From: Escherichia coli
Lineage (GTDB): Bacteria; Pseudomonadota; Gammaproteobacteria; Enterobacterales; Enterobacteriaceae
DNA length: 59,926 nucleotides
Strand: one strand, 5' to 3'
Assembly (NCBI RefSeq): GCF_003334765.1
Contig: NZ_QOWT01000024.1
Below are positions 1 to 59,926 of this stretch, piece after piece. Under the pieces are notes generated by a model, which did not search any database, was not told the origin of the DNA, and worked only from the letters and a program-made list of their open reading frames with translations. The first letter of the stretch is position 1; each line of letters opens with the position of its first letter. The position numbers and the translations under genes are program-made.

Positions 1-97
1 TTATCGTGAGAGTAATTCATCGGCACGTTAAATCATATCAGGCGTAATACCACAACCCTTAAGTTAGCGCTTATGGGGTTTTTCCCCACCGTTCAGG

Positions 98-492
98 GTG
101 TTCCCCGCGCCAGCGGGGATAAACCGGTCATCACGATGAATCAAAATTTCGCCCGGCTGTGTTCCCCGCGCCAGCGGGGATAAACCGCTTCTCCACCGTT
201 TGGCGAATCGGTGTGAGGGGTGTTCCCCGCGCCAGCGGGGATAAACCGATTGTTATAATTATTTATTGAAATATCATTCCGTGTTCCCCGCGCCAGCGGG
301 GATAAACCGAATCTATTGTGAATTTGAAATGGTCCAGCACTGTGTTCCCCGCGCCAGCGGGGATAAACCGGGTAAAAACACGGTCTGAACCGACATTCAT
401 GTGTGTTCCCCGCGTCAGCGGGGATAAACCGGGCGCACTGGATGCGATGATGGATATCACTTGGAGTTCCCCCGCCCCTGCGGTAGAACTCC
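98..492 (+). CRISPR. Type I-E CRISPR array: 7 direct repeats of 29 bp with 6 spacers of 32 bp; last repeat degenerate
   Basis: Repeat GTGTTCCCCGCGCCAGCGGGGATAAACCG at 98-126, 159-187, 220-248, 281-309, 342-370; variant with T at 415 at 403-431; degenerate terminal repeat GAGTTCCCCCGCCCCTGCGGTAGAACTCC at 464-492. Spacers at 127-158, 188-219, 249-280, 310-341, 371-402, 432-463, all exactly 32 bp. The repeat matches the E. coli type I-E repeat family. Confidence 0.95.
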
Positions 493-513
493 CAGCTCCC
501 ATTTTCAAACCCA

Positions 514-1551
514 TCAAGACGCCTTCGCCAGCTCCTTCACCAACGGTAGCATTATCCGCATAACGTCACGGCAGCGACGTTCTATTCTTCCAGGAAGTGC
601 CTTATCAATATGCTGTTGATTATCCAGTCTTACGTCATGCCAGCTATTTCCCGCAGGGAATGCGGCTGTTTTTGCGCGTTGCTGATAACCATCCTTATTC
701 CCAAGATTCCAGTTAGTCGCTTCCACCGAAAGTACAGCAATGCCCGCTTTGTCGAATATTTCTGCGTCATTACAACACCCAGTGCCTTTCGGATAATTTT
801 TATTCAAACCCGGATTGGTCGTTGCGGCTATTCCGTGACTGCGCGCAATTGCCAGCGCCCTGTCGCGCGTTAATTTCCTTACTGCTTCAGGGGTTTTTAC
901 ACCGCTGTTGAAATACAATTTATCGCCAACAATTAAGTTATCGAGATTAATCACCAGCAGCGTATTTTTCTTTTCGGTGTCACTCATCCGCTTGAGTAAA
1001 TTCTCAGCGCCTAATTTCCCTTCCTCTTCGCCGCTGGTCGCCACAAATCGAATACCATACTCGGTAGGCGTATTTTTCAGGCGTTCTGCCAATTCCAGCA
1101 TGACACCTAAACCTGCGGCGTTATCATCCATTCCTTGTAACGTCAGCCCGCCGAGATTGGCATCGGCGTCAGCATCGCTCAGCGGGGCGTAAGTATCCAG
1201 ATGCGCCATAATGATGATCTGCTGCGGCGCTTTGCCTTCATGAGCGGCAATCACCGTACTTCCTGTCACGTTATGCCAGTTCTTGCGATTATCGCGGGCG
1301 GTATAAATATACCGACTATTAAATGTCCGAATATCACTGCGATAACCCATTTGCTGAAACTGTTGGCGAATATAATCGGCAGATAACATTTCTGCTGGAG
1401 TTCCGGTCATGCGTCCCGGAAAGAAAGTAGCAATATGTCGTGCCTGGGTATTAGCAAAATCGCCAGGTTTAGGTGACGAGGCGTGTACGGGGAGAATAAA
1501 GCATACGCCGAGCGCTAGGGCAGCGGTACGGTGGCGCAATGCGGAAAACAT
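514..1551 (-). CDS. iap: Alkaline phosphatase isozyme conversion aminopeptidase
   Basis: 345 aa ORF, N-terminal signal peptide (MFSALRHRTAALALGVCFILPVHA), M28-type peptidase; lies next to the CRISPR array as in E. coli. Confidence 0.9.
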   Translation of the reverse strand: MFSALRHRTAALALGVCFILPVHASSPKPGDFANTQARHIATFFPGRMTGTPAEMLSADYIRQQFQQMGYRSDIRTFNSRYIYTARDNRKNWHNVTGSTVIAAHEGKAPQQIIIMAHLDTYAPLSDADADANLGGLTLQGMDDNAAGLGVMLELAERLKNTPTEYGIRFVATSGEEEGKLGAENLLKRMSDTEKKNTLLVINLDNLIVGDKLYFNSGVKTPEAVRKLTRDRALAIARSHGIAATTNPGLNKNYPKGTGCCNDAEIFDKAGIAVLSVEATNWNLGNKDGYQQRAKTAAFPAGNSWHDVRLDNQQHIDKALPGRIERRCRDVMRIMLPLVKELAKAS

Positions 1552-1802
1552 AGTGAGTCCTTAAATACCATGCAAATTTTTTTACCGCCATAGTATGAAA
1601 CTGCCGCTGCGCTAAAACAATTTCAAATCTTCCTAAACGCCCGAAATCCGGTGCCTTAAGCACTTTTTGATATTAGCTTTGCCAAATCGTTATTCCGTTA
1701 AGGAACTACTCATTCTAATTGGTAATTTCATTCGTTCTCTTACGCTCCCTATAGTCGAAACATCTGATGGCAAGAAAATAGCGGTATTGCAAAGGAACGG
1801 TT

Positions 1803-2711
1803 ATGGATCAAATACGACTTACTCACCTGCGGCAACTGGAGGCGGAAAGCATCCACATTATTCGCGAGGTGGCGGCAGAATTCTCAAATCCGGTGATGCT
1901 CTACTCTATCGGTAAAGATTCCAGCGTCATGCTGCATCTGGCGCGCAAGGCGTTTTATCCAGGTACGCTGCCTTTCCCGTTGCTGCATGTCGATACCGGC
2001 TGGAAATTCCGCGAGATGTATGAGTTCCGCGATCGTACGGCGAAAGCCTACGGCTGCGAGCTGCTGGTGCATAAAAACCCGGAAGGCGTGGCGATGGGGA
2101 TTAATCCATTCGTGCACGGCAGCGCGAAACATACCGATATTATGAAAACTGAAGGCCTGAAACAGGCGCTGAACAAATACGGTTTTGATGCCGCCTTCGG
2201 TGGTGCGCGCCGTGACGAAGAGAAATCCCGCGCTAAAGAGCGAATCTACTCTTTCCGTGACCGCTTCCATCGCTGGGATCCGAAAAATCAGCGCCCAGAG
2301 CTGTGGCACAACTACAACGGGCAAATTAACAAAGGCGAAAGCATCCGCGTCTTCCCGCTCTCTAACTGGACCGAGCAGGATATCTGGCAATACATCTGGC
2401 TGGAAAATATCGACATTGTGCCGCTGTATCTCGCTGCGGAACGTCCGGTTCTGGAACGCGACGGTATGTTGATGATGATTGATGACAACCGTATCGACCT
2501 GCAACCGGGCGAAGTGATTAAAAAACGGATGGTGCGTTTCCGTACGCTGGGCTGCTGGCCGCTGACCGGTGCGGTGGAGTCAAATGCACAAACACTACCG
2601 GAGATCATCGAAGAGATGCTGGTTTCTACCACCAGTGAACGTCAGGGCCGCGTGATTGACCGCGACCAGGCGGGGTCTATGGAGCTGAAAAAACGTCAGG
2701 GGTATTTTTAA
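1803..2711 (+). CDS. cysD: Sulfate adenylyltransferase subunit 2
   Basis: 302 aa ORF, PAPS reductase-like fold, recognised CysD sequence; followed by cysN with 1 bp spacing. Confidence 0.95.
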
Positions 2712-2712
2712 G

Positions 2713-4140
2713 ATGAACACCGCACTTGCACAACAAATCGCCAATGAAGGCGGCGTCGAAGCCTGGATGATTGCGCAACAACATAAAAGCCTGCTGCGTT
2801 TTCTGACCTGTGGTAGCGTCGATGACGGCAAAAGTACCCTGATTGGTCGCCTGCTGCACGATACCCGCCAAATCTACGAAGATCAGCTCTCATCGCTGCA
2901 TAACGACAGTAAACGTCACGGCACCCAGGGCGAAAAGCTGGATCTGGCACTGCTGGTGGACGGCCTGCAAGCTGAGCGCGAACAGGGCATCACCATTGAC
3001 GTGGCTTACCGCTATTTCTCTACCGAGAAGCGTAAATTTATTATCGCCGACACCCCAGGGCACGAGCAGTACACCCGCAATATGGCGACTGGCGCATCGA
3101 CATGTGAACTGGCGATCTTACTGATCGATGCCCGTAAAGGCGTGCTCGATCAAACCCGTCGTCACAGTTTTATCTCCACACTGTTGGGGATCAAACATCT
3201 GGTCGTGGCGATCAACAAAATGGATCTGGTGGATTACAGTGAAAAGACGTTCACCCGTATTCGTGAAGATTATCTGACCTTTGCCGGGCAGCTGCCGGGT
3301 AATCTGGATATCCGCTTTGTGCCGCTCTCTGCACTGGAAGGCGACAACGTGGCTTCGCAAAGTGAAAGTATGGCGTGGTACAGCGGTCCAACACTGCTCG
3401 AAGTGCTGGAAACCGTGGAGATCCAGCGAGTGGTGGATGCTCAGCCAATGCGCTTCCCGGTGCAGTACGTTAATCGCCCGAATCTCGATTTTCGTGGTTA
3501 CGCCGGAACGCTGGCATCCGGTCGCGTAGAAGTCGGGCAACGAGTCAAAGTGCTGCCCTCTGGTGTGGAATCAAACGTCGCCCGGATCGTGACTTTTGAT
3601 GGCGATCGCGAAGAAGCCTTTGCCGGAGAAGCGATCACCCTGGTGCTGACGGATGAGATCGACATCAGCCGTGGCGATCTGCTGCTGGCGGCAGACGAAG
3701 CGTTACCAGCTGTGCAGAGCGCGTCGGTGGATGTGGTATGGATGGCGGAACAGCCGCTTTCCCCGGGCCAGAGTTATGACATCAAAATTGCCGGTAAGAA
3801 GACGCGTGCTCGTGTTGATGGCATTCGTTATCAGGTTGATATTAATAACCTTACCCAACGCGAAGTTGAAAACCTGCCGCTGAACGGCATCGGCCTGGTG
3901 GATCTCACTTTTGACGAGCCACTGGTGTTAGATCGTTATCAGCAAAACCCGGTTACCGGTGGGCTGATTTTTATCGATCGCCTGAGCAATGTGACCGTAG
4001 GTGCCGGTATGGTGCATGAGCCAGTTAGCCAGGCAACTGCTGCGCCATCTGAATTTAGTGCATTCGAACTGGAATTGAATGCCCTGGTTCGCCGCCACTT
4101 TCCACACTGGGGCGCGCGCGATTTGCTGGGGGATAAATAA
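2713..4140 (+). CDS. cysN: Sulfate adenylyltransferase subunit 1 (GTPase)
   Basis: 475 aa ORF with GTP-binding motif [11 protein letters not shown]-Tu-like. Confidence 0.95.
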
Positions 4141-4745
4141 TGGCGCTGCATGACGAAAACGTCGTCTGGCATAGCCATCCGGTCACTGTGCAACAACGCG
4201 AGCTACACCACGGTCATCGTGGTGTAGTGCTGTGGTTTACCGGCCTCTCCGGGTCCGGTAAATCAACGGTCGCCGGGGCGCTGGAGGAGGCGTTACATAA
4301 ACTCGGCGTCAGTACGTATCTGCTGGATGGCGATAATGTTCGCCACGGATTATGCAGCGATCTCGGTTTTAGCGATGCCGATCGTAAAGAGAATATCCGT
4401 CGCGTCGGTGAAGTGGCGAATTTGATGGTTGAAGCCGGACTGGTGGTGCTGACCGCATTTATCTCGCCACACCGCGCCGAACGCCAGATGGTTCGTGAAC
4501 GCGTAGGAGAAGGGCGCTTTATCGAAGTGTTTGTCGATACGCCGCTGGCGATTTGCGAAGCCCGCGATCCAAAAGGCTTATATAAGAAAGCGCGTGCCGG
4601 TGAACTGCGCTACTTTACGGGAATAGATTCCGTTTACGAAGCGCCTGAATCGGCAGAAATTCATCTCAATGGTGAACAATTAGTAACAAATTTGGTACAG
4701 CAATTATTAGATCTGTTGAGACAGAACGATATTATCAGATCCTGA
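4140..4745 (+). CDS. cysC: Adenylylsulfate (APS) kinase
   Basis: 201 aa ORF, P-loop GLSGSGKST; start overlaps the cysN stop (translational coupling). Confidence 0.95.
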
Positions 4746-4794
4746 GACACCACCGGGTTTCCATGCCCGGTTCGTCAAAGTAACAGGATCAAAT

Positions 4795-5118
4795 ATGCGT
4801 AATAGCCATAACATTACACTAACAAATAACGACAGCCTTACTGAGGATGAAGAAACCACATGGTCACTGCCTGGTGCCGTGGTCGGTTTTATCTCCTGGT
4901 TATTTGCGCTGGCGATGCCGATGTTGATTTATGGCTCTAACACGCTGTTCTTCTTTATCTACACCTGGCCTTTCTTTCTTGCGCTGATGCCCGTCGCGGT
5001 AGTGGTGGGGATTGCGCTGCATTCATTGATGGACGGAAAGCTACGCTACAGTATTGTTTTCACCCTGGTGACAGTAGGCATTATGTTTGGCGCACTGTTT
5101 ATGTGGCTACTGGGCTAA
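4795..5118 (+). CDS. ygbE: Small inner-membrane protein of unknown function
   Basis: 107 aa ORF with hydrophobic segments; conserved position between cysC and ftsB. Confidence 0.75.
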   Translation: MRNSHNITLTNNDSLTEDEETTWSLPGAVVGFISWLFALAMPMLIYGSNTLFFFIYTWPFFLALMPVAVVVGIALHSLMDGKLRYSIVFTLVTVGIMFGALFMWLLG

Positions 5119-5311
5119 TTTGTACTTTCCCGTCTCCTCTGTTCATAATTCAAACCGTAACTAATAATGAGATTATGTTCTGCACGCCCTGGGTATACGT
5201 AACAATGGACAAATGTGGTACATTTGCCCGCGTTGTCGCGGTATCCCCAACAGAGGATGTAGAGTCGTCTTCGGATGCATGGGATGATGATGCCGTTTTT
5301 CAGGGGGCAGG

Positions 5312-5623
5312 ATGGGTAAACTAACGCTGCTGTTGCTGGCTATTCTGGTCTGGCTACAGTATTCGCTGTGGTTCGGTAAGAACGGTATACATGACTATAC
5401 CCGCGTCAATGATGATGTGGCGGCACAGCAAGCTACAAACGCGAAACTTAAAGCGCGAAACGATCAACTTTTTGCCGAAATTGACGATCTCAATGGCGGC
5501 CAGGAGGCGCTCGAAGAGCGTGCGCGTAATGAACTCAGCATGACCAGGCCGGGCGAAACTTTTTATCGTCTGGTGCCTGACGCGTCGAAGCGCGCACAGT
5601 CTGCGGGGCAAAACAATCGATAA
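5312..5623 (+). CDS. ftsB: Cell division protein FtsB
   Basis: 103 aa ORF, N-terminal transmembrane segment followed by coiled coil. Confidence 0.9.
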
Positions 5624-5641
5624 ATCAGCCCGGGAATTAAC

Positions 5642-6352
5642 ATGGCAACCACTCATTTGGATGTTTGCGCCGTGGTTCCGGCGGCCGGATTTGGCCGTCG
5701 AATGCAAACGGAATGTCCTAAGCAATATCTCTCAATCGGTAATCAAACCATTCTTGAACACTCGGTGCATGCGCTGCTGGCGCATCCCCGGGTGAAACGA
5801 GTCGTCATTGCCATAAGTCCTGGCGATAGCCGTTTTGCACAACTTCCTCTGGCGAATCATCCGCAAATCACCGTTGTAGATGGCGGTGATGAGCGTGCCG
5901 ATTCCGTGCTGGCAGGTCTGAAAGCCGCTGGCGACGCGCAGTGGGTATTGGTGCATGACGCCGCTCGTCCTTGTTTGCATCAGGATGACCTCGCGCGATT
6001 GTTGGCGTTGAGCGAAACCAGCCGCACGGGGGGGATCCTCGCCGCACCAGTGCGCGATACTATGAAACGTGCCGAACCGGGCAAAAATGCCATTGCTCAT
6101 ACCGTTGATCGCAACGGCTTATGGCACGCGCTGACGCCGCAATTTTTCCCTCGTGAGCTGTTACATGACTGTCTGACGCGCGCTCTAAATGAAGGCGCGA
6201 CTATTACCGACGAAGCCTCGGCGCTGGAATATTGCGGATTCCATCCTCAGTTGGTCGAAGGCCGTGCGGATAACATTAAAGTCACGCGCCCGGAAGATTT
6301 GGCACTGGCCGAGTTTTACCTCACCCGAACCATCCATCAGGAGAATACATAA
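5642..6352 (+). CDS. ispD: 2-C-methyl-D-erythritol 4-phosphate cytidylyltransferase
   Basis: 236 aa ORF, recognised IspD sequence; start overlaps into ispF. Confidence 0.95.
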
Positions 6353-9378: not shown

Positions 9379-10518
9379 ATGAGCGCGGGAAGCCCAAAAT
9401 TCACCGTTCGCCGCATTGCGGCTTTGTCACTGGTTTCGCTATGGCTGGCAGGCTGTTCTGACACTTCAAATCCACCGGCACCGGTCAGCTCCGTTAATGG
9501 CAATGCGCCTGCAAATACTAATTCTGGTATGTTGATTACGCCGCCGCCGAAAATGGGGACGACGTCTACAGCGCAGCAACCGCAAATTCAGCCGGTACAG
9601 CAGCCACAAATTCAGGCTACTCAACAACCGCAAATCCAGCCAGTGCAGCCAGTAGCTCAGCAGCCGGTACAGATGGAAAACGGACGCATCGTCTATAACC
9701 GTCAGTATGGGAACATTCCGAAAGGCAGTTATAGCGGCAGTACCTATACCGTGAAAAAAGGCGACACACTTTTCTATATCGCCTGGATTACTGGCAACGA
9801 TTTCCGTGACCTTGCTCAGCGCAACAATATTCAGGCACCATACGCGCTGAACGTTGGTCAGACCTTGCAGGTGGGTAATGCTTCCGGTACGCCAATCACT
9901 GGCGGAAATGCCATTACCCAGGCCGACGCAGCAGAGCAAGGAGTTGTGATCAAGCCTGCACAAAATTCCACCGTTGCTGTTGCGTCGCAACCGACAATTA
10001 CGTATTCTGAATCTTCGGGTGAACAGAGTGCTAACAAAATGTTGCCGAACAACAAGCCAGCTGCGACCACGGTCACAGCGCCTGTAACGGTACCAACAGC
10101 AAGCACAACCGAGCCAACTGTCAGCAGTACATCAACCAGTACGCCTATCTCCACCTGGCGCTGGCCGACTGAGGGCAAAGTGATCGAAACCTTTGGCGCT
10201 TCTGAGGGGGGCAACAAGGGGATTGATATCGCAGGCAGCAAAGGACAGGCAATTATCGCGACCGCAGATGGCCGCGTTGTTTATGCTGGTAACGCGCTGC
10301 GCGGCTACGGTAATCTGATTATCATCAAACATAATGATGATTACCTGAGTGCCTACGCCCATAACGACACAATGCTGGTCCGGGAACAACAAGAAGTGAA
10401 GGCGGGGCAAAAAATAGCAACCATGGGTAGCACCGGAACCAGTTCAACACGCTTGCATTTTGAAATTCGTTACAAGGGGAAATCCGTAAACCCGCTGCGT
10501 TATTTGCCGCAGCGATAA
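9379..10518 (+). CDS. nlpD: Murein hydrolase activator lipoprotein NlpD (LysM plus degenerate M23 domain)
   Basis: 379 aa ORF, lipobox LAGCS, internal QQPQIQ repeats, C-terminal M23-like domain. Confidence 0.95.
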
Positions 10519-10580
10519 ATCGGCGGAACCAGGCTTTTGCTTGAATGTTCCGTCAAGGGATCACGGGTAGGAGCCACCTT

Positions 10581-11573
10581 ATGAGTCAGAATACGCTGAA
10601 AGTTCATGATTTAAATGAAGATGCGGAATTTGATGAGAACGGAGTTGAGGTTTTTGACGAAAAGGCCTTAGTAGAAGAGGAACCCAGTGATAACGATTTG
10701 GCCGAAGAGGAACTGTTATCGCAGGGAGCCACACAGCGTGTGTTGGACGCGACTCAGCTTTACCTTGGTGAGATTGGTTATTCACCACTGTTAACGGCCG
10801 AAGAAGAAGTTTATTTTGCGCGTCGCGCACTGCGTGGAGATGTCGCCTCTCGCCGCCGGATGATCGAGAGTAACTTGCGTCTGGTGGTAAAAATTGCCCG
10901 CCGTTATGGCAATCGTGGTCTGGCGTTGCTGGACCTTATCGAAGAGGGCAACCTGGGGCTGATCCGCGCGGTAGAGAAGTTTGACCCGGAACGTGGTTTC
11001 CGCTTCTCAACATACGCAACCTGGTGGATTCGCCAGACGATTGAACGGGCGATTATGAACCAAACCCGTACTATTCGTTTGCCGATTCACATCGTAAAGG
11101 AGCTGAACGTTTACCTGCGAACCGCACGTGAGTTGTCCCATAAGCTGGACCATGAACCAAGTGCGGAAGAGATCGCAGAGCAACTGGATAAGCCAGTTGA
11201 TGACGTCAGCCGTATGCTTCGTCTTAACGAGCGCATTACCTCGGTAGACACCCCGCTGGGTGGTGATTCCGAAAAAGCGTTGCTGGACATCCTGGCCGAT
11301 GAAAAAGAGAACGGTCCGGAAGATACCACGCAAGATGACGATATGAAGCAGAGCATCGTCAAATGGCTGTTCGAGCTGAACGCCAAACAGCGTGAAGTGC
11401 TGGCACGTCGATTCGGTTTGCTGGGGTACGAAGCGGCAACACTGGAAGATGTAGGTCGTGAAATTGGCCTCACCCGTGAACGTGTTCGCCAGATTCAGGT
11501 TGAAGGCCTGCGCCGTTTGCGTGAAATCCTGCAAACGCAGGGGCTGAATATCGAAGCGCTGTTCCGCGAGTAA
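10581..11573 (+). CDS. rpoS: RNA polymerase sigma factor RpoS (sigma-38)
   Basis: ORF track 10545-11573; conserved N-terminus [21 protein letters not shown] begins at the internal ATG at 10581, giving 330 aa; sigma-70 family regions recognisable. Confidence 0.95.
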
Positions 11574-11588
11574 GTAAGCATCTGTCAG

Positions 11589-11661
11589 AAAGGCCAGTCT
11601 CAAGCGAGGCTGGCCTTTTCTGTGCACAATAAAAGGTCCGATGCCCATCGGACCTTTTTAT
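11589..11661. terminator. Bidirectional intrinsic terminators between convergent rpoS and ygbN
   Basis: Hairpin AGGCCAG-N12-CTGGCCT flanked by AAA and TTTT (11589-11620); hairpin GGTCCGATG-N3-CATCGGACC flanked by AAAA and TTTTTATT (11631-11662). Confidence 0.85.
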
Positions 11662-11666
11662 TAAGG

Positions 11667-13031
11667 TCAAATTACCGCCCATACGCACCAGGTAATTAAG
11701 AATCCGGTAAAACCGAGAATGGTCGTTAACACTGTCCAGGTTTTCAGACCGTCTGCTACCGATAACCCCAGATATTTGGTCACAATCCAGAACCCTGAGT
11801 CATTAATATGTGACGCACCAAGCCCACCAAAGCAGGCTGCCAGCGTCACCAATACGCACTGAATCGGATTCAATCCCATCACCGCTTCTGAGAGTAACCC
11901 GCCGGTTGTCAGTATTGCTACGGTTGCTGACCCCTGCGATGCACGCAGCGCCAGTGAAATAATAAATGCGGCTGGTAACAGAGGCAGGTCAATCATTTGT
12001 AGCATGTTGGCAAGGGCTTTGCCGACGCCCGATTCCACCAGCACTTTGCCAAATACCCCTCCAGCACCAGTAACCAAAATCACTACCGCCGCAGTAGGAA
12101 GCGCTGAGCCCATAATGTCGCTGGTGTGTTGTAAGCTCCAGCCGCGACGTAAAGCCAATAACCAGAATGCCAGCACCAGCGCAATCATTAGAGCTACCAT
12201 TGGTGAGCCGATCAGCTGTAGCGTACCAAGCAGGGGATGCGAAGGCGGCATCAGTGTTGCGGAAACCGTACCCGCCATGATAATCGCGATAGGAATAACA
12301 ATTAGCGAGGTGACCAGCGCGACGCCCGGTGGATTTATTTTATCGCTTAATTTTGTCGCGCCTTCCTCACTGGCCGGAGCCAGTTGCATCTGTTCCAGTA
12401 CTTCTACTGACATCGCATATTGGCGCTTATTGATTATTTTCGCTGCAAAGTAGCCAACAACCCCTACGGGAATAGAAATCGCAATACCGATGATGGTTAG
12501 CCAGCCGATGTCTGCGTGGAGTAACCCCGCTGCGGCGACAGGGCCTGGATGCGGCGGTACCGCCACGTGAACAGTGAGCATGATCCCAGCGACAGGCAGG
12601 CCAAATTTGAGTGGCGATATTTTGGCAACCTTGGCAAAACCGTAAATGATTGGCGCAAGAATAATAAAGCCGACATCAAAGAAGACGGGAATACCGAGGA
12701 AGAACGCTGCCAGAGTCAGCGCAGCGATAGTTCGTTTGTCACCTAACTTGCGACTGAAATAATTAGCCAGTGACTCTGCACCACCAGAGTGTTCGATCAT
12801 ACGCCCCAGCATAGCGCCCAGACCAATAATAATAGTGACGGAACCAAGCACACCGCCCATCCCGGCGATCATCACTTTACCCACTTCGCCCGCCGGTATA
12901 CCCGCCGCAAGTGCGACTAACAGGCTGACGAGGAGCAGAGCAACGAATGGTTGTACCTTTGCCTTGATGACCAGCAGCAACAGCATGATTACGCCAGTTA
13001 ACGCAATGCATAACAATGTAATTGTGGACAT
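11667..13031 (-). CDS. ygbN: GntP-family acid-sugar permease
   Basis: 454 aa polytopic membrane ORF typical of gluconate:H+ symporter family. Confidence 0.85.
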   Translation of the reverse strand: MSTITLLCIALTGVIMLLLLVIKAKVQPFVALLLVSLLVALAAGIPAGEVGKVMIAGMGGVLGSVTIIIGLGAMLGRMIEHSGGAESLANYFSRKLGDKRTIAALTLAAFFLGIPVFFDVGFIILAPIIYGFAKVAKISPLKFGLPVAGIMLTVHVAVPPHPGPVAAAGLLHADIGWLTIIGIAISIPVGVVGYFAAKIINKRQYAMSVEVLEQMQLAPASEEGATKLSDKINPPGVALVTSLIVIPIAIIMAGTVSATLMPPSHPLLGTLQLIGSPMVALMIALVLAFWLLALRRGWSLQHTSDIMGSALPTAAVVILVTGAGGVFGKVLVESGVGKALANMLQMIDLPLLPAAFIISLALRASQGSATVAILTTGGLLSEAVMGLNPIQCVLVTLAACFGGLGASHINDSGFWIVTKYLGLSVADGLKTWTVLTTILGFTGFLITWCVWAVI

Positions 13032-13900: not shown

Positions 13901-14539
13901 TTAACTCCTTAATTCCGCAATTTCACCTGCGGTCAGATAACGGATCGGGCGGTCACCGAGAATAAAAATCAGCTTTGCCGTTTCCTCCAGCTCTTCCATA
14001 TTGTTGGCGGCTTCTTGCAGGCTTTCACCGCAAACCACTGGGCCATGATTTGCCAGTAAAAAAGCCTGATTGTCTGCTGCCAGTTCCGCCAGATCCTGTG
14101 CGATGCGTTTATCGCCCGGTCGGTAATAAGGCACCAGCGGGACATTTCCCATCCGCATCACCACGTATGGTGTGAACGGACGAATAACGTTGCTGCTGTC
14201 CAGCCCTTGCAGGCAGGAAAGCGCCGTCGACCATGTGCTGTGCAAATGCACCACCGCTTTACAACGCGGATTGTTGCGATACAGCGCCAGATGAAAGAGC
14301 ACCTCTTTCGAGGGTTTGTCACCACTTAACCATTCGCCATCCGCGGCGACTTTGGAAAGCCGCTGCGGATCGAGATTGCCCAGGCATGAACCTGTCGGTG
14401 TCGCCAGTAAATTCCCGTCAGGTAAAAGCAGCGACAGATTGCCAGCCGAACCGGTTGCATAGCCGCGCTGAAAGAATGAACTGGCAATCCGCGTCATCTC
14501 CTCTCGCAAAGACTGCTCTACTTTTGCGAAATCGCTCAT
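13901..14539 (-). CDS. ygbL: Class II aldolase/adducin-family enzyme (3-oxo-tetronate 4-phosphate decarboxylase)
   Basis: 212 aa ORF; 4 bp overlap with ygbK. Confidence 0.8.
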
Positions 14540-15798
14540 GATAAAAACTCTCTTTGGGCTCGTGAAAAAAAGGCGTCATCACCGAAGTTGCCAGATTTAA
14601 GGGCGAGTGAGACAGGCTTATCCAGTGCGTTTACCCACGGCACGCCGGGGGAAATGGTTGGGCCAATATGAAACCCTTTTATTCCCAGGCTCTGTGTGAC
14701 TACGCCGGAGGTCTCACCGCCTGCGACAATAAAGCGTGTCACGCCTTCCGCTGCTAACCGCGCCGCTAGTTGAGAAAACAGTGTTTCTACTGCCTGACTG
14801 GCTTTTTGTGCACCGTATTGCTGTTGAATTGCTGCCAATGCGTCAGTGCTGGCGGTGGCAAAAACCAGTGGAGCAAGTACACTTTCCTGGCCCAGAACCC
14901 ACTCTGCCAGTTCGTGTGCATAAGCGGCCAGAGTTTCAATTGAGAGGCAGCGTGCCACATCAACTTCACGGGCTGGTGCAATTTGACGGTAATGTGCTAC
15001 CTGGCGGTTGGTCATTTGAGAGCATGAACCGGAGAGCACTACGCCGCGCCCAGCGAGCGGACGCCCTGCTTTGCGAGCCTGGTTACCGTTTTCTTGCGCC
15101 CACTGCCGGGCCAGGCCAATCGCCAGACCAGAACCGCCCGTTACCAGTGGGGCATCGCGCAAGGCTTCTCCCTGAATTTCCAGATGGTGTTCGGTCAGCG
15201 CATCAAGCACCGCGTAGCGGTAGCCCTCTTGCTGTAAGCGAGCCAGCTCTTGACGAACGGCATCCACACCTTGTTCGAAAACATGTGCCGAAACGACGCC
15301 GCAGCGCCCTGTGGATTGCGCTTCAACCAGACGGGGAAGATAGCTGTCGGTCATGGGATTTACCGGGTGATGGCGCATCCCGGATTCGGCCAGCAGTTGA
15401 TTCATTACGAACAAATACCCCTGATAAACCGTACGTCCGTTGACCGGCAGGGCCGGAGAGAAGACCGTAAACGGCGTGTCGAGAGCATCCATTAAGGCAT
15501 CGGTAACCGGGCCAATATTACCTTTCGCCGTACTGTCGAAAGTAGAGCAGTATTTGAAATAGATCTGTTTGCAACCTTGCTGTTGCAACCAGCTCAGAGC
15601 CGCCAGCGATTGCTGTGTGGCTTCAACCACTGGACAGGAGCGCGTTTTCAGGCTGATCACCAGTGCGTCGATTGCTTCCGGCATTTTACCTGTTGGAACA
15701 CCGTTAATTTGTACCGTTGGTAGACCGTTTTCCACCAGAAAACTGGCGATATCCGTCGCGCCGGTAAAATCATCGGCGATAACGCCAATCTTGATCAT
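14536..15798 (-). CDS. ygbK: DUF1537-family four-carbon acid-sugar kinase
   Basis: 420 aa ORF with N-terminal MIKIGVIADDFTGATD typical of the family; annotated length may differ from the ORF. Confidence 0.8.
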   Translation of the reverse strand: MIKIGVIADDFTGATDIASFLVENGLPTVQINGVPTGKMPEAIDALVISLKTRSCPVVEATQQSLAALSWLQQQGCKQIYFKYCSTFDSTAKGNIGPVTDALMDALDTPFTVFSPALPVNGRTVYQGYLFVMNQLLAESGMRHHPVNPMTDSYLPRLVEAQSTGRCGVVSAHVFEQGVDAVRQELARLQQEGYRYAVLDALTEHHLEIQGEALRDAPLVTGGSGLAIGLARQWAQENGNQARKAGRPLAGRGVVLSGSCSQMTNRQVAHYRQIAPAREVDVARCLSIETLAAYAHELAEWVLGQESVLAPLVFATASTDALAAIQQQYGAQKASQAVETLFSQLAARLAAEGVTRFIVAGGETSGVVTQSLGIKGFHIGPTISPGVPWVNALDKPVSLALKSGNFGDDAFFSRAQREFLS

Positions 15799-40707: not shown

Positions 40708-42960
40708 ATGGCAAAAAACACATCTTGCGGTGTCCAACTGCGTATTCGTGGCAAAGTGCAGGGCGTCGGTTTTCGTCCGTTTGTCTGGCAGCTGGCACAG
40801 CAATTAAATCTTCACGGCGATGTCTGTAATGACGGCGATGGCGTAGAAGTCCGGCTGCGGGAAGACCCGGAAACGTTTCTTGTTCAATTGTATCAGCACT
40901 GCCCGCCGCTGGCGCGTATTGATAGCGTCGAGCGTGAGCCGTTTATCTGGTCACAACTGCCCACCGAGTTCACTATACGCCAGAGCACAGGCGGCACCAT
41001 GAATACGCAAATTGTTCCCGATGCCGCTACTTGCCCTGCTTGCCTTGCCGAAATGAATACCCCAGGCGAACGGCGTTATCGTTATCCGTTTATCAACTGT
41101 ACCCGCTGCGGCCCGCGTTTCACCATTATTCGCGCCATGCCTTACGACCGCCTGTTTACCGTGATGGCGGCGTTTCCGCTATGTCCGGCCTGTGACAAAG
41201 AGTACCGTGACCCGCTCGATCGTCGCTTCCACGCCCAGCCGGTGGCCTGCCCGGAGTGTGGCCCGCATCTTGAATGGGTAAGTCATGGTGAACATGCGGA
41301 ACAAGAGGCGGCATTACAGGCAGCTATCGCACAGTTAAAAATGGGCAAAATTGTCGCCATCAAAGGGATTGGCGGATTTCATCTTGCCTGCGATGCACGT
41401 AACAGTAACGCGGTGGCGACACTTCGGGCGCGCAAACATCGCCCGGCGAAACCGCTGGCGGTCATGTTGCCAGTGGCTGACGGTTTACCAGACGCTGCGC
41501 GCCAGTTGCTTACCACGCCCGCCGCGCCGATTGTGCTGGTGGATAAAAAATACGTTCCTGAGCTTTGTGATGATATCGCCCCTGACCTTAACGAAGTCGG
41601 GGTAATGTTGCCTGCGAACCCGCTCCAGCATTTGCTGTTACAGGAACTGCAATGCCCGCTGGTGATGACCTCCGGCAACCTGAGCGGTAAACCACCAGCT
41701 ATCAGCAACGAACAGGCGCTGGCGGATTTGCAGGGCATTGCCGACGGATTCTTGATACATAACCGCGACATCGTGCAGCGGATGGATGATTCGGTGGTGC
41801 GCGAAAGCGGCGAAATGCTGCGCCGTTCGCGGGGGTATGTGCCGGATGCGCTGGCTTTGCCTCCGGGCTTTAAAAATGTTCCGCCTGTGCTGTGTCTCGG
41901 CGCGGATCTGAAAAATACCTTCTGCCTGGTGCGCGGTGAACAAGCGGTGTTGAGTCAGCATCTGGGCGATTTAAGTGACGATGGCATCCAGATGCAGTGG
42001 CGCGAAGCGTTACGCCTGATGCAAAACATCTACGATTTTACCCCGCAATACGTTGTGCATGACGCGCATCCGGGCTATGTCTCCAGCCAGTGGGCGCGTG
42101 AAATGAATCTGCCGACGCAAACGGTACTGCATCATCATGCCCATGCAGCGGCGTGTCTGGCAGAGCATCAGTGGCCGCTGGATGGCGGTGATGTCATTGC
42201 TTTGACGCTCGACGGTATCGGTATGGGGGAGAACGGCGCTTTGTGGGGCGGCGAGTGCCTGCGGGTGAACTATCGCGAATGTGAGCACCTGGGCGGCTTG
42301 CCTGCAGTGGCGCTTCCGGGTGGCGATTTGGCAGCGAAGCAGCCGTGGCGAAACCTGCTGGCGCAGTGCCTGCGCTTTGTGCCGGAGTGGCAGAATTACT
42401 CTGAAACAGCAAGTGTGCAACAGCAAAACTGGAGCGTGCTGGCGCGGGCCATTGAGCGTGGAATTAACGCGCCGCTGGCGTCATCGTGTGGGCGTTTTTT
42501 CGATGCAGTGGCGGCGGCACTGGGCTGTGCGCCAGCCACGTTAAGTTATGAAGGTGAAGCGGCTTGTGCTCTGGAGGCGCTCGCAGCCTCATGCCACGGA
42601 GTGACGCATCCGGTGACAATGCCGCGGGTGGACAATCAACTGGATCTCGCCACTTTCTGGCAGCAGTGGCTGAACTGGCAGGCACCGGTTAATCAACGCG
42701 CGTGGGCGTTTCATGATGCGCTGGCGCAGGGTTTTGCCGCGTTGATGCGTGAGCAGGCCACGATGCGTGGTATCACTACGCTGGTATTTAGCGGCGGGGT
42801 TATTCATAACCGTTTGCTGCGTGCACGTCTGGCGCATTATCTCGCTGATTTCACATTGCTCTTTCCACAGAGTTTACCGGCGGGTGATGGCGGTTTGTCT
42901 CTGGGGCAGGGGGTTATTGCTGCGGCGCGTTGGTTAGCGGGTGAAGTCCAGAACGGATAA
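40708..42960 (+). CDS. hypF: Hydrogenase maturation carbamoyltransferase HypF
   Basis: ORF track starts 40636; recognised N-terminus [27 protein letters not shown] (acylphosphatase domain) begins at 40708, giving 750 aa; two zinc-finger CxxC pairs, YrdC and Kae1-like domains. Confidence 0.95.
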
Positions 42961-42984
42961 AACGTGTTGCATTTGGACACCATT

Positions 42985-43066
<82 letters not shown>

Positions 43067-43087
43067 ATTTTAGGCACAGTAGCCCAC

Positions 43088-44221
43088 CTACATCGGCAAT
43101 GTTTTCAACAATCCAAATGCCTCTTTCATCCGATCCTCACTGACCACAAAGGCGCGAAGCTGGTCAGCATCGTCAACGCCGCGCGCCACCATTCCCTGGC
43201 GTTCGGTATTAATTTGCCAGCGTAAATCCTGACGCTGGGTTTCGCCTGCCAGATGCAGCGGTAATTCCGGCGTTTTGATTTTCACCAGCATCGCCGGGAG
43301 TTTCAGCGGCGTGTTATTGCCGAGAAGATTTTTTGCCAGCACCATCGCGCTAAGTTGAATCGGCTGGAGGAACGGCAATACCTGACCGTTAATTTCCGCG
43401 CAATCGCCCAGCGCGTAAATATCGGTATTACTGGTTTGCAGATAACTATCGACGCAAACGCCGCGATTAATCGTCAGCCCGGCGCGTCGTGCCAGGGCGG
43501 TTTCCGGGCGCAGTCCGGTGGCGGCAATTACCGCATCCACTTCGATGCTACGCTGGCGGTCCAGCGTTGCCAGAATGCCAGAATCCGTTTTTTCCAGCCC
43601 CTGCAACTGAGATTTCAACAGCAGATGAACACCCATCTCCGTCAACCGATGCTGCAAGCGGCTGCTTACTTCCGGTGGCATTAACGACGCCAGAATACTG
43701 GCAGCGTTGTCGATTAGCGTGACCGCTTTGCCTGCACGACAAAAATCCATCGCCAGTTCGCTACCAATCAAACCACCGCCAACAATCAACACGCGTCGGG
43801 CATCCCGCAGTTGCGTTTCACAGGCGCGATACTCTTGCTGACTATTTAACGTCAGCATTAACTCACGCCCAGGCACAGGCGGGACAAAGGCGCTGGCACC
43901 GGTTGCCAGCACTAACTTGTCGTATTGCCACTGATTATTCTGGCTTTTCACCACATGGGCTTCGGCATCGATATCCGTCACCCAGGTGTGCGGAAACAGG
44001 CGCAGATTAAACTGCTCGGCAAATTCACCCGCCGTCTGGCGGGTAAGGTCGTCGGCACGTTGCCCCTGACTGATAACATGGCTGAGGTCAGGTTTGTTGT
44101 ACTCATCTATGCTGTCGGCGGCAATCAAGGTTAATGGAATAGTGGCGTCCTGTTTGCGAATATTTTTCACCAGTTGTCGGGCGGCGAAGCCCGAACCAAT
44201 GATCACAATGCCGTTGCTCAT
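43088..44221 (-). CDS. norW: NADH:flavorubredoxin reductase
   Basis: 377 aa ORF with FAD/NAD-binding motifs ([14 protein letters not shown]). Confidence 0.95.
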
Positions 44222-45657
44222 TTTGCCTCCGATGCCAGTTCGTCAAAGACGTCTTTGCCGAGGGAGCATTCCGGGCACAGGAAGTTATCCGGGACTTCAC
44301 TCCACGGCGTTCCTGGTGCAACGTCCTGCATTGGCTCGCCTTTTGCCGGATCGTAAATCCACCGGCAGACGCTGCACTGCATCCGTGGGCCGAGGTCAGC
44401 CGTCGTGGCGGCAGAGGTTTCTTCTTTAACTACCGTATTCACCGTGCTCTGCGGCAGCGGCGCGAGCGCCCACTGACGGGCGATTTCGCGACCGTGTTCA
44501 CGGCATAACTCCAGAGCGTCCTGGTCTGGTCGCCATTTGGCTTTCAGGCTGAGCGACATTTCGAAACCCGCATCCTGCAGGCGCGTGGAAAGACGATCCA
44601 CCGCACCGCCGCTCCAGCCGTGAGAGCCGAAAGCACTGGCGCGTTTGTTACGGAAGCGTAAACCAGTCATCTCCTCCACCAGCCCGGCGATTTTCGGCAT
44701 CATCACGTTATTCATCGTCGAAGTGCCGACCAGCACGCCTTTTGAGCGGAAGACATTGGTCAGGATTTCGTTTTTATCGCTTCGGGCGACGTTGAAAATT
44801 TTCACCGCCACGCGTGGGTCGGTTTCCGCAATCCCCTGGGCGATAGCGTCAGCCATCATGCGGGTGTTATTCGACATGGTGTCGTAGAAAATGGTGATTC
44901 TGTCTTCCTGATAATCAGCCGCCCATTTCAGGTACAGCTCGACAATTTGCGTCGGGTTATCGCGCCAGACCACGCCGTGGGAGGTCGCTATCATATCGAC
45001 TGGTAAGTTAAAGCCCAGGATCTCGGTAATTTTCGGCGTTACCAGGCGGCTGAACGGCGTCAGGATATTGGCGTAGTAACGCTGGCACTGCTCGAAAAGC
45101 TCCGTCTGATCCACTTCATCGTTGAACAGATGCTCGTCACAGTAGTGCTGACCGAAAGCATCGTTACTGAACAGCACCGCGTCGCCTGTCAGGTAAGTCA
45201 TCATGCTGTCCGGCCAGTGCAGCATTGGTGTTTCGACAAAAATGAGCTGTTTGCCGTTGCCGATATCCAGCGTGTCGCCAGTTTTCACCACATTAAAATT
45301 CCACTCCGGATGATGGTGATGACCATTTATCGAGTCGATAGCGTTGGCAGTACAGTAGATCGGCGTATCGGGAATTTGTGCCATCAGTTCGGTCAGCGCC
45401 CCAGCGTGGTCCTCTTCTGCATGGTTAATCACGATGTAATCGATATCCGCCAGATCGATTTCATTACGCAGGTTCTGCACAAATTCGCGGCTGAATTTAT
45501 GGTCGACGGTGTCGATCAGCACGTTTTTTTCTTCGCGGATGAGGTAGCTATTGTAGCTGCTGCCGCGCAGCGTTTTATATTCCGTGCCGTGAAAATCACG
45601 CACTTCCCAGTCACGTTGACCAACCCAATGAATGTTATTTTTCACCACAATAGACAT
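44218..45657 (-). CDS. norV: Anaerobic nitric oxide reductase flavorubredoxin
   Basis: 479 aa ORF: metallo-beta-lactamase-like plus flavodoxin domains and a C-terminal rubredoxin CxxC pair. Confidence 0.95.
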
Positions 45658-45703
45658 AGCAACCTCAATTTATTCAGCGTGTTCTAAAAAGATGTCTTGC
45701 TAA

Positions 45704-45720
45704 TTGCAGATTGCGTGCCA
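45704..45720 (-). promoter_or_regulatory. Sigma-54 (-24/-12) promoter of norVW
   Basis: Reverse complement reads TGGCACGCAATCTGCAA, close to TGGCACG-N4-TTGCA; upstream of norV ATG on the minus strand. Confidence 0.8.
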
Positions 45721-45775
45721 GTTTTTTATCTGATTGTTTTTACTCTATAAATAAAATTATGCCCATTAATGAGTA

Positions 45776-45831
45776 GTCAAAATGACTATCAATCAAATGG
45801 TCGATATGACAATATCTATAGTCAAATTGAC
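45776..45831. promoter_or_regulatory. Three NorR binding sites (GT-N7-AC) in the norR-norV intergenic region
   Basis: GTCAAAATGAC (45776-45786), GTCGATATGAC (45800-45810), GTCAAATTGAC (45821-45831). Confidence 0.8.
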
Positions 45832-45843
45832 AGTGAGGCAAAG

Positions 45844-47358
45844 ATGAGTTTTTCCGTTGATGTGCTGGCGAATATCGCCATCGAATTGCAGCGTGGGATT
45901 GGTCACCAGGATCGTTTTCAGCGCCTGATCACCACGCTACGTCAGGTGCTGGAGTGCGATGCGTCTGCGTTGCTACGTTACGATTCGCGGCAGTTTATTC
46001 CGCTTGCCATCGACGGTCTGGCAAAGGATGTACTCGGTAGACGCTTTGCGCTGGAAGGGCATCCACGGCTGGAAGCGATTGCCCGCGCCGGGGATGTGGT
46101 GCGCTTTCCCGCAGACAGCGAATTGCCCGATCCCTATGACGGTTTGATTCCTGGGCAGGAGAGTCTGAAGGTTCACGCCTGCGTTGGTCTGCCATTGTTT
46201 GCCGGGCAAAACCTGATCGGCGCACTGACGCTCGACGGGATGCAGCCCGATCAGTTCGATGTTTTCAGCGACGAAGAGCTACGGCTGATTGCTGCGCTGG
46301 CGGCGGGAGCGTTAAGCAATGCGTTGCTGATTGAACAACTGGAAAGCCAGAATATGCTGCCAGGCGATGCCACGCCGTTTGAAGCGGTGAAACAGACGCA
46401 GATGATTGGCTTGTCCCCTGGCATGACGCAACTGAAAAAAGAGATTGAGATTGTGGCGGCGTCCGATCTCAACGTCCTGATCAGCGGTGAGACTGGAACC
46501 GGTAAGGAGCTGGTGGCGAAAGCGATTCATGAAGCCTCGCCACGGGCGGTGAATCCGCTGGTCTATCTCAACTGTGCTGCACTGCCGGAAAGTGTGGCGG
46601 AAAGTGAGTTGTTCGGGCATGTGAAAGGAGCGTTTACTGGCGCTATCAGTAATCGCAGCGGGAAGTTTGAAATGGCGGATAACGGCACGCTGTTTCTGGA
46701 TGAGATCGGCGAGTTGTCGTTGGCATTGCAGGCCAAGCTGCTGAGGGTGTTGCAGTATGGCGATATTCAGCGCGTTGGCGATGACCGTTGTTTGCGGGTC
46801 GATGTGCGCGTGCTGGCGGCGACTAACCGCGATTTACGCGAAGAGGTGCTGGCAGGGCGATTCCGCGCCGATTTGTTTCATCGCCTGAGCGTGTTTCCAC
46901 TTTCGGTGCCGCCGCTGCGTGAGCGGGGCGATGATGTCATTCTGCTGGCGGGGTATTTCTGCGAGCAGTGTCGTTTGCGGCAGGGGCTCTCCCGCGTGGT
47001 ATTAAGTGCCGGAGCGCGAAATTTACTGCAACACTACAGTTTTCCGGGAAACGTGCGCGAACTGGAACATGCTATTCATCGGGCGGTAGTTCTGGCGAGA
47101 GCCACCCGCAGCGGCGATGAAGTGATTCTTGAGGCGCAACATTTTGCTTTTCCTGAGGTGACGTTGCCGACGCCAGAAGTGGCGGCGGTGCCCGTTGTTA
47201 AGCAAAACCTGCGTGAAGCGACAGAAGCGTTCCAGCGTGAAACTATTCGTCAGGCACTGGCACAAAATCATCACAACTGGGCTGCCTGCGCGCGGATGCT
47301 GGAAACCGACGTCGCCAACCTGCATCGGCTGGCGAAACGTCTGGGATTGAAGGATTAA
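45844..47358 (+). CDS. norR: NO-responsive sigma-54-dependent activator NorR
   Basis: ORF track starts 45769; recognised N-terminus [19 protein letters not shown] begins at 45844, giving 504 aa; GAF domain, AAA+ with GETGTGKE and GAFTGA, C-terminal HTH. Confidence 0.95.
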
Positions 47359-59580: not shown

Positions 59581-59583
59581 TTT

Positions 59584-59660
59584 GCATCCGTAGCTCAGCT
59601 GGATAGAGTACTCGGCTACGAACCGAGCGGTCGGAGGTTCGAATCCTCCCGGATGCACCA
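59584..59660 (+). tRNA. argV: tRNA-Arg (anticodon ACG)
   Basis: 77 nt; GCATCCG acceptor stem, anticodon loop GGCTACGAACC, T-loop GGTTCGAATCC, 3' CCA; 3 nt after serV. Confidence 0.93.
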
Positions 59661-59858
59661 TATTCTACGTACTTTCAGCGATGAAGGTATGGAAGAGGTG
59701 GCGGTAATAACCGCAGGCACCAGGGAGGATAACGTTGCTTTAGCAACGGCCCGAAGGGCGAGCCGCAAGGCGAGTAATCCTCCCGGATGCACCATCTCTT
59801 ACTTGATACGGCTTTAGTAGCGGTATCAAAAAATCTGCAGTAAAGTAAGTTTCCCGAT

Positions 59859-59926
59859 GCATCCGTAGCTCAGCTGGATAGAGTACTCGGCTACGAACCG
59901 AGCGGTCGGAGGTTCGAATCCTCCCG
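59859..59926 (+). tRNA. argY: tRNA-Arg (ACG), second tandem copy, truncated by the window end
   Basis: Identical to the first 68 nt of the copy at 59584-59660; starts exactly 275 bp after it. Confidence 0.85.

Follow-up and report, generated by a model that had tools for sequence, protein, structure and literature searches.

An ordinary rpoS allele with GAG (Glu) at codon 33, almost certainly from a non-K-12 Escherichia coli

Sigma-S, the product of rpoS, is the sigma factor of the general stress response and of stationary phase. Codon 33 of its gene reads GAG in a stretch of Escherichia coli DNA of 59,926 nucleotides, here called the window. The initial annotation had taken this codon, together with a short CRISPR array, as a hint that the DNA does not belong to the MG1655 lineage. 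This raises the question of how ordinary a GAG at this place is, and whether it can tell from which kind of E. coli the window comes.

The rpoS gene of the window

The coding sequence of rpoS extends from 10581 to 11573 on the plus strand and comprises 330 codons followed by TAA, without a single internal stop codon; it was delimited by translation, by profile matches and by nucleotide identity to the rpoS genes of strains FORC 064 and BL21(DE3). Codon 33, at positions 10677 to 10679 of the same strand, is GAG whether read from the sequence, the translation (residue 33 is Glu) or the alignments. Sequence and translation thus agree with the initial annotation both in placing GAG at these positions when counting from 10581 and in finding the frame intact over 330 codons up to the terminal TAA. 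In MG1655 the annotated rpoS coding sequence begins at the base that aligns with 10581, and within the locus the gene has the coordinates annotated in FORC 064, a genome that agrees with the window at 100% over the first 25 kb. Another in-frame ATG, at 10545, would give a protein of 342 amino acids; none of the reference annotations uses it as start, and it was rejected. Also set aside were three open reading frames on the minus strand over rpoS (10579-10830, 11007-11648 and 11111-11473), which are mechanical ORF calls without annotation support in MG1655 and FORC 064.

The protein scored 604.6 bits against the RpoS equivalog model NF004207 of NCBIfam (cut-off 394) and 480.7 bits against the RpoS model TIGR02394 (cut-off 378.7), the latter match beginning at residue 48. 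Its Pfam domains follow each other in the order Sigma70_r1_2 (residues 56-88), r2 (94-163), r3 (174-248) and r4 (262-315). Upstream of the gene start at 10581 lies nlpD, which ends at 10518, and the order pcm-nlpD-rpoS is common to the window, MG1655, FORC 064, BL21(DE3) and O157:H7. By its equivalog scores, its domain order and the position of its gene downstream of nlpD the protein is assigned to sigma-S, a group 2 member of the sigma-70 family. It is expected to be functional, as may reasonably be concluded from the intact reading frame and the identity to a common allele, because the coding sequence is identical to that of the annotated protein WP_000081550.1 of BL21(DE3) and FORC 064 and the score is far above the equivalog cut-off. 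A search of the PDB showed that structures of the E. coli RpoS holoenzyme are on record (6kj6, 5ipl, 6omf and others).

Residue 33 lies outside all Pfam sigma-70 domains, the first of which begins at residue 56, and also outside the TIGR02394 match. Glu33 is therewith placed in the acidic N-terminal segment that precedes sigma region 1.2. Suppressor-free rpoS(Am) strains form a partially active delta1-53 sigma-S, translation of which starts at a secondary initiation region (PMC2763269); this activity fits a position of residue 33 in a dispensable N-terminal segment.

Codon 33 in laboratory strains, natural isolates and related genera

Aligned to 10581-11573, the rpoS genes of MG1655, W3110 and E. 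coli B showed CAG, TAG and, in BL21(DE3), GAG at codon 33. The MG1655 gene (b2741, NP_417221.1) has the same position between nlpD and ygbN and likewise 330 codons; 991 of its 993 nucleotides and 329 of its 330 residues are identical to those of the window. There are exactly two base differences. At nucleotide 97 the window has G where MG1655 has C, which makes codon 33 GAG rather than CAG and residue 33 Glu rather than Gln. At nucleotide 942 the window has T where MG1655 has C, which makes codon 314 (11520 to 11522, plus strand) CGT rather than CGC and leaves the residue unchanged. The initial annotation had given CAG for MG1655, and the alignment confirmed it; a GAG in MG1655 would have removed the strain inference.

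In W3110 codon 33 is TAG and nucleotide 942 is C; the rpoS of this strain, which contains an internal stop, is classed by RefSeq as a pseudogene. The rpoS(Am) alleles of W3110, EMG2, WG1 and J53 differ from the window at the same polymorphic base, nucleotide 97, and have the stop codon TAG, whereas the gene of the window encodes a full-length protein. The rpoS genes of BL21(DE3) and FORC 064, both annotated with WP_000081550.1, are identical to that of the window in every nucleotide. An O157:H7 strain has GAG and four synonymous differences. ECOR05 and ECOR08, which gave an rpoS-mutS PCR product of K-12 size, are listed in Table 1 of PMC3074542 with 'C97G, C942T; Q33E' relative to MG1655, which is the haplotype of the window.

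The frequency of the alleles was determined by searching 5,426 complete E. coli genomes with exact-word queries of 41 nucleotides centred on nucleotide 97. Since each 28-nucleotide megablast seed within such a query spans nucleotide 97, only genomes with the queried allele are found. GAG was present in 4,850 genomes; the matches listed range over O157:H7, O55:H7 and numerous isolates of commensal and clinical origin. CAG was found in 175 genomes, with sublines of MG1655, BW25113, DH10B, MC4100, BW2952 and RV308 among the matches listed; all 60 of the CAG genomes listed (60 of 175) look like K-12 derivatives. TAG was found in 121 genomes, the matches listed including W3110, EMG2, WG1, J53, NCM3722, HMS174, AG100, S17-1, O16:H48 isolates and BLR(DE3); those listed (60 of 121) are K-12-like in appearance, with the exception of BLR(DE3). 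The fourth allele, TAT, occurred in one genome only, that of C600. The 279 genomes outside these four classes may differ by a further SNP within about 7 nucleotides of the site, may have a deletion or another allele, or may lack rpoS; a nucleotide search with rpoS gave no match in 11 of the 5,426 genomes.

An error of sequencing or assembly, or a chance private mutation without significance for the lineage, would be another explanation of the GAG. The same 41-nucleotide word in 4,850 independent complete genomes speaks against it, as does the complete 993-nucleotide gene, of which at least 40 E. coli genomes have a copy of 100% identity, among them ATCC 8739, E. coli C and ML35; we give this explanation no credence.

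BLR(DE3) (NZ_CP020368.1) is a derivative of E. coli B and has the K-12 amber codon TAG at position 33 of rpoS, BL21(DE3) having GAG. In this B strain K-12 DNA was introduced in the vicinity of recA. Its TAG would fit an import of K-12 DNA along with the neighbouring recA/srl region when the strain was constructed, in which case BLR(DE3) would be rpoS(Am).

Outside E. coli, codon 33 was examined in the genomes of GTDB species representatives with a degenerate pattern for residues 26 to 44, in which codon 33 was left as NNN. At least 80 loci were found, and in 80 of the 80 Enterobacteriaceae representatives listed the codon specifies Glu, 78 times as GAG and twice as GAA. The loci belong to Escherichia albertii, E. 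whittamii and other Escherichia, to Salmonella enterica subsp. arizonae and diarizonae, and to Citrobacter, Enterobacter, Kosakonia, Leclercia, Atlantibacter, Pluralibacter and others. Glu is found in all 80 outgroup representatives listed, and GAG therefore is the ancestral codon. By comparison of sequences, the codon of the window belongs to the ancestral Glu33 class, the majority state in E. coli, which is common to the outgroups.

The published record points in the same direction. In K-12 codon 33 is variable, being TAG in some strains and a codon for Glu, Tyr or Gln in others, and the VTEC strains tested all had GAG, as compared to CAG in MG1655 (PMC2700278). The same paper states, citing Atlung et al. 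(2002) and Subbarayan and Sarkar (2004), that GAG is common among natural non-K-12 isolates. The 'codon 33' of PMC11148124 was found to be that of lacZ rather than rpoS and was disregarded, as was PMC5405132, which has the expression among its references only. What the initial annotation had stated about the distribution of the alleles therewith holds on both sides: the amber codon is present in many K-12 derivatives (W3110, EMG2, WG1, J53, NCM3722, HMS174 and AG100 all have TAG), and GAG is typical of non-K-12 isolates, as evidenced by its presence in no fewer than 4,850 of the 5,426 E. coli genomes and by Glu in 80 of 80 Enterobacteriaceae representatives listed.

The strain background

From 403 to 59926 the window is collinear with MG1655 (2877729 to 2818207) at 99.76% identity, with 143 mismatches (SNPs) and one gap over 59.5 kb. 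The SNPs are clustered. Iap (17), cysD (10) and cysN (40) together contain 67 of them (window 500-6000), and norV (16) and norW (19) together another 35 (window 42000-46000); in the regions from 18 to 42 kb and from 46 to 60 kb there are almost no differences. The clusters look like recombined patches on a K-12-like phylogroup A backbone, a mosaic that is expected of a close phylogroup A relative of K-12 rather than of a K-12 derivative. The window ends (59583-59926) inside the tandem tRNA-Arg/tRNA-Ser cluster (argQ, argZ, argY, argV and serV in MG1655), where several internal repeat matches were observed.

The gene nlpD (9379 to 10518, plus strand; assigned from its ORF and from annotations) directly upstream of rpoS differs from MG1655 in six SNPs, four of which lie in 10014-10580. 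nlpD carries the main rpoS promoter and the long 5' leader of the rpoS mRNA. The four SNPs in the 3' part of nlpD, which serves at the same time as this leader, are at 10060, 10116, 10398 and 10419, and none is found in the last 160 nucleotides before the start codon of rpoS.

Downstream of rpoS the arrangement is like that of phylogroup A and K-12, not of the O157 type. The first gene is ygbN (11667 to 13031, minus strand; from its ORF and annotations), with which the K-12-type rpoS-mutS segment (ygbN-ygbI) begins, whereas in O157:H7 a MarR-family gene follows rpoS. Further on, otnK/ygbK (14536-15798, minus strand) is an ORF of 420 amino acids, the stop codon of which overlaps the start of ygbL, as annotated in FORC 064 and BL21(DE3). 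The single indel of the comparison is located here, at 14651 of the window: MG1655 lacks one G (at its 2863481), which results in a ygbK of 388 amino acids with a different, shorter C-terminus. It appears that the gene of the 3-oxo-tetronate kinase (ygbK) is frameshifted in the K-12 reference and that the copy of the window is intact.

At its other end the window contains a short type I-E CRISPR array (98 to 436, plus strand) with six repeats and five spacers at a spacing of 61 nucleotides. When it was aligned to MG1655, nothing matched but the terminal, degenerate repeat and what lies beyond; a comparison of spacers revealed none common to the array of the window and MG1655. Positions 1-402 have no MG1655 counterpart besides the CRISPR repeat sequence, and positions 1-97 matched nothing in the 73 kb of MG1655 that were compared, the interval between cas2 and the array included. 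The first 20 nucleotides (1 to 20, minus strand) belong to the coding sequence of an IS421 (IS4-family) transposase, as annotated at the identical sequence of FORC 064, and IS421 adjoins the array at the place that in MG1655 is taken by the sequence towards cas2. FORC 064 has the identical locus order cysH - hok/gef - IS421 - CRISPR - iap, without cas genes. Judged by the FORC 064 locus, the array of the window appears to be an orphan, the whole cas3-cas2 operon being missing. That the short array speaks against MG1655, as the initial annotation had suspected, was borne out by the different spacers and by IS421 in place of the cas genes.

Could the window nevertheless come from a K-12 derivative with GAG at codon 33, that is from a true revertant of the amber mutation or from a stock that never acquired it? 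Some K-12 stocks are on record with GAG (PMC2700278; PMC5491219), and both the collinearity with MG1655 at 99.76% identity and the K-12-type rpoS-mutS segment are what such a derivative would have. Against this stand the 143 SNPs and the one indel over 59.5 kb, the array without MG1655 spacers, IS421 in place of the cas side of the array, the T at nucleotide 942 of rpoS, which is absent from both MG1655 and W3110, and the intact otnK, which in MG1655 is the frameshifted ygbK. K-12 derivatives differ among themselves by far fewer changes than 143 SNPs in 59.5 kb. A member of the K-12 lineage should be nearly identical to MG1655 or W3110, including the CRISPR-I spacers and the adjacent cas operon, and the window is not. 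The flanking SNPs and the CRISPR/IS421 context effectively refute a K-12 strain with a GAG revertant, and we consider this origin extremely improbable. The initial annotation was right in separating the DNA from the MG1655 lineage; what decides the matter are the SNPs and the indel, the CRISPR array without common spacers and the IS421 flank. Codon 33 alone is a weak discriminator of K-12 and non-K-12 because the literature has GAG in some K-12 stocks (PMC2700278).

The next candidate is the E. coli B lineage (BL21 or REL606). The rpoS gene of BL21(DE3) is identical in nucleotide sequence and encodes the same protein, WP_000081550.1; in both, the elements follow each other as cysH - hok/gef - IS421 - short CRISPR - iap, and otnK encodes 420 amino acids. 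However, between 281 and 43100 the identity of the window to BL21(DE3) is no higher than 98.66% (563 mismatches, 11 gap openings), which rules out E. coli B as the source. The BL21(DE3) array is also shorter by one repeat-spacer unit, the CRISPR feature being 273 nucleotides long as compared to 334 in FORC 064, and other natural isolates are 100% identical to the window over 25 kb. The chance that a B strain is the source is therefore minute.

The isolates in question are FORC 064, CFS3292, VG48B2, Z217-2/-4 and Z1323HEC0011, which are 100% identical to the window from 1 to 25000; the natural isolates identical over this part are from cucumber, cattle, farm, hospital and human sources. From 35000 to 59926 the best matches among E. 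coli genomes are, by bit score, apparently a few mismatches below perfect. Among the matches listed, strain P377, from lettuce, is the only one near the top for both parts.

The window thus almost certainly carries the ordinary ancestral rpoS allele in a non-K-12 E. coli that is near to K-12 and has a phylogroup-A-like arrangement of the locus. Evidence contradicting this explanation was not met.

Origin of the K-12 alleles and the meaning of codon 33

GAG being the ancestral codon, a single G-to-T transversion within the K-12 pedigree would have converted it to the amber codon TAG. From TAG, single-base pseudo-reversions would then have led to CAG (Gln) in MG1655, BW25113, MC4100 and DH10B, and to TAT (Tyr) in C600. 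We infer the direction and the order of these mutations by parsimony and from the literature. TAG as the K-12 founder allele, with CAG and TAT as pseudo-revertants, fits because in the census EMG2 and WG1, which we take to be early K-12 stocks, carry TAG. The lineage of the window would never have passed through this history of codon 33, and its sigma-S would be full-length and is expected to be fully active.

One could still ask whether Glu33 and Gln33 of sigma-S are functionally equivalent. A subtle effect of residue 33 on a region-1.1-like autoinhibition, on promoter preference or on turnover is conceivable; the window has no bearing on it, and we regard it as very unlikely. In PMC3074542 it is stated that Q33E is commonly observed and that both forms have 'similar functional activity', and also that RpoS levels differ between strains with identical RpoS sequences. 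If the two residues were nevertheless not equivalent, decades of work on RpoS physiology based on MG1655 would slightly misrepresent the natural protein.

GAG at codon 33 of rpoS is already known as a textbook polymorphism and as the ordinary, normal allele (Atlung, 2002; Subbarayan and Sarkar, 2004; Ferenci, 2011), and our analysis adds nothing beyond the literature published since 2002. The codon is of use as a quick typing marker, most laboratory derivatives of K-12 having TAG, CAG or TAT, and natural E. coli as well as E. coli B having GAG; it also indicates how likely a strain is to make full-length sigma-S. Here it rightly flags the window as non-K-12 DNA with an intact gene for the general stress regulator.
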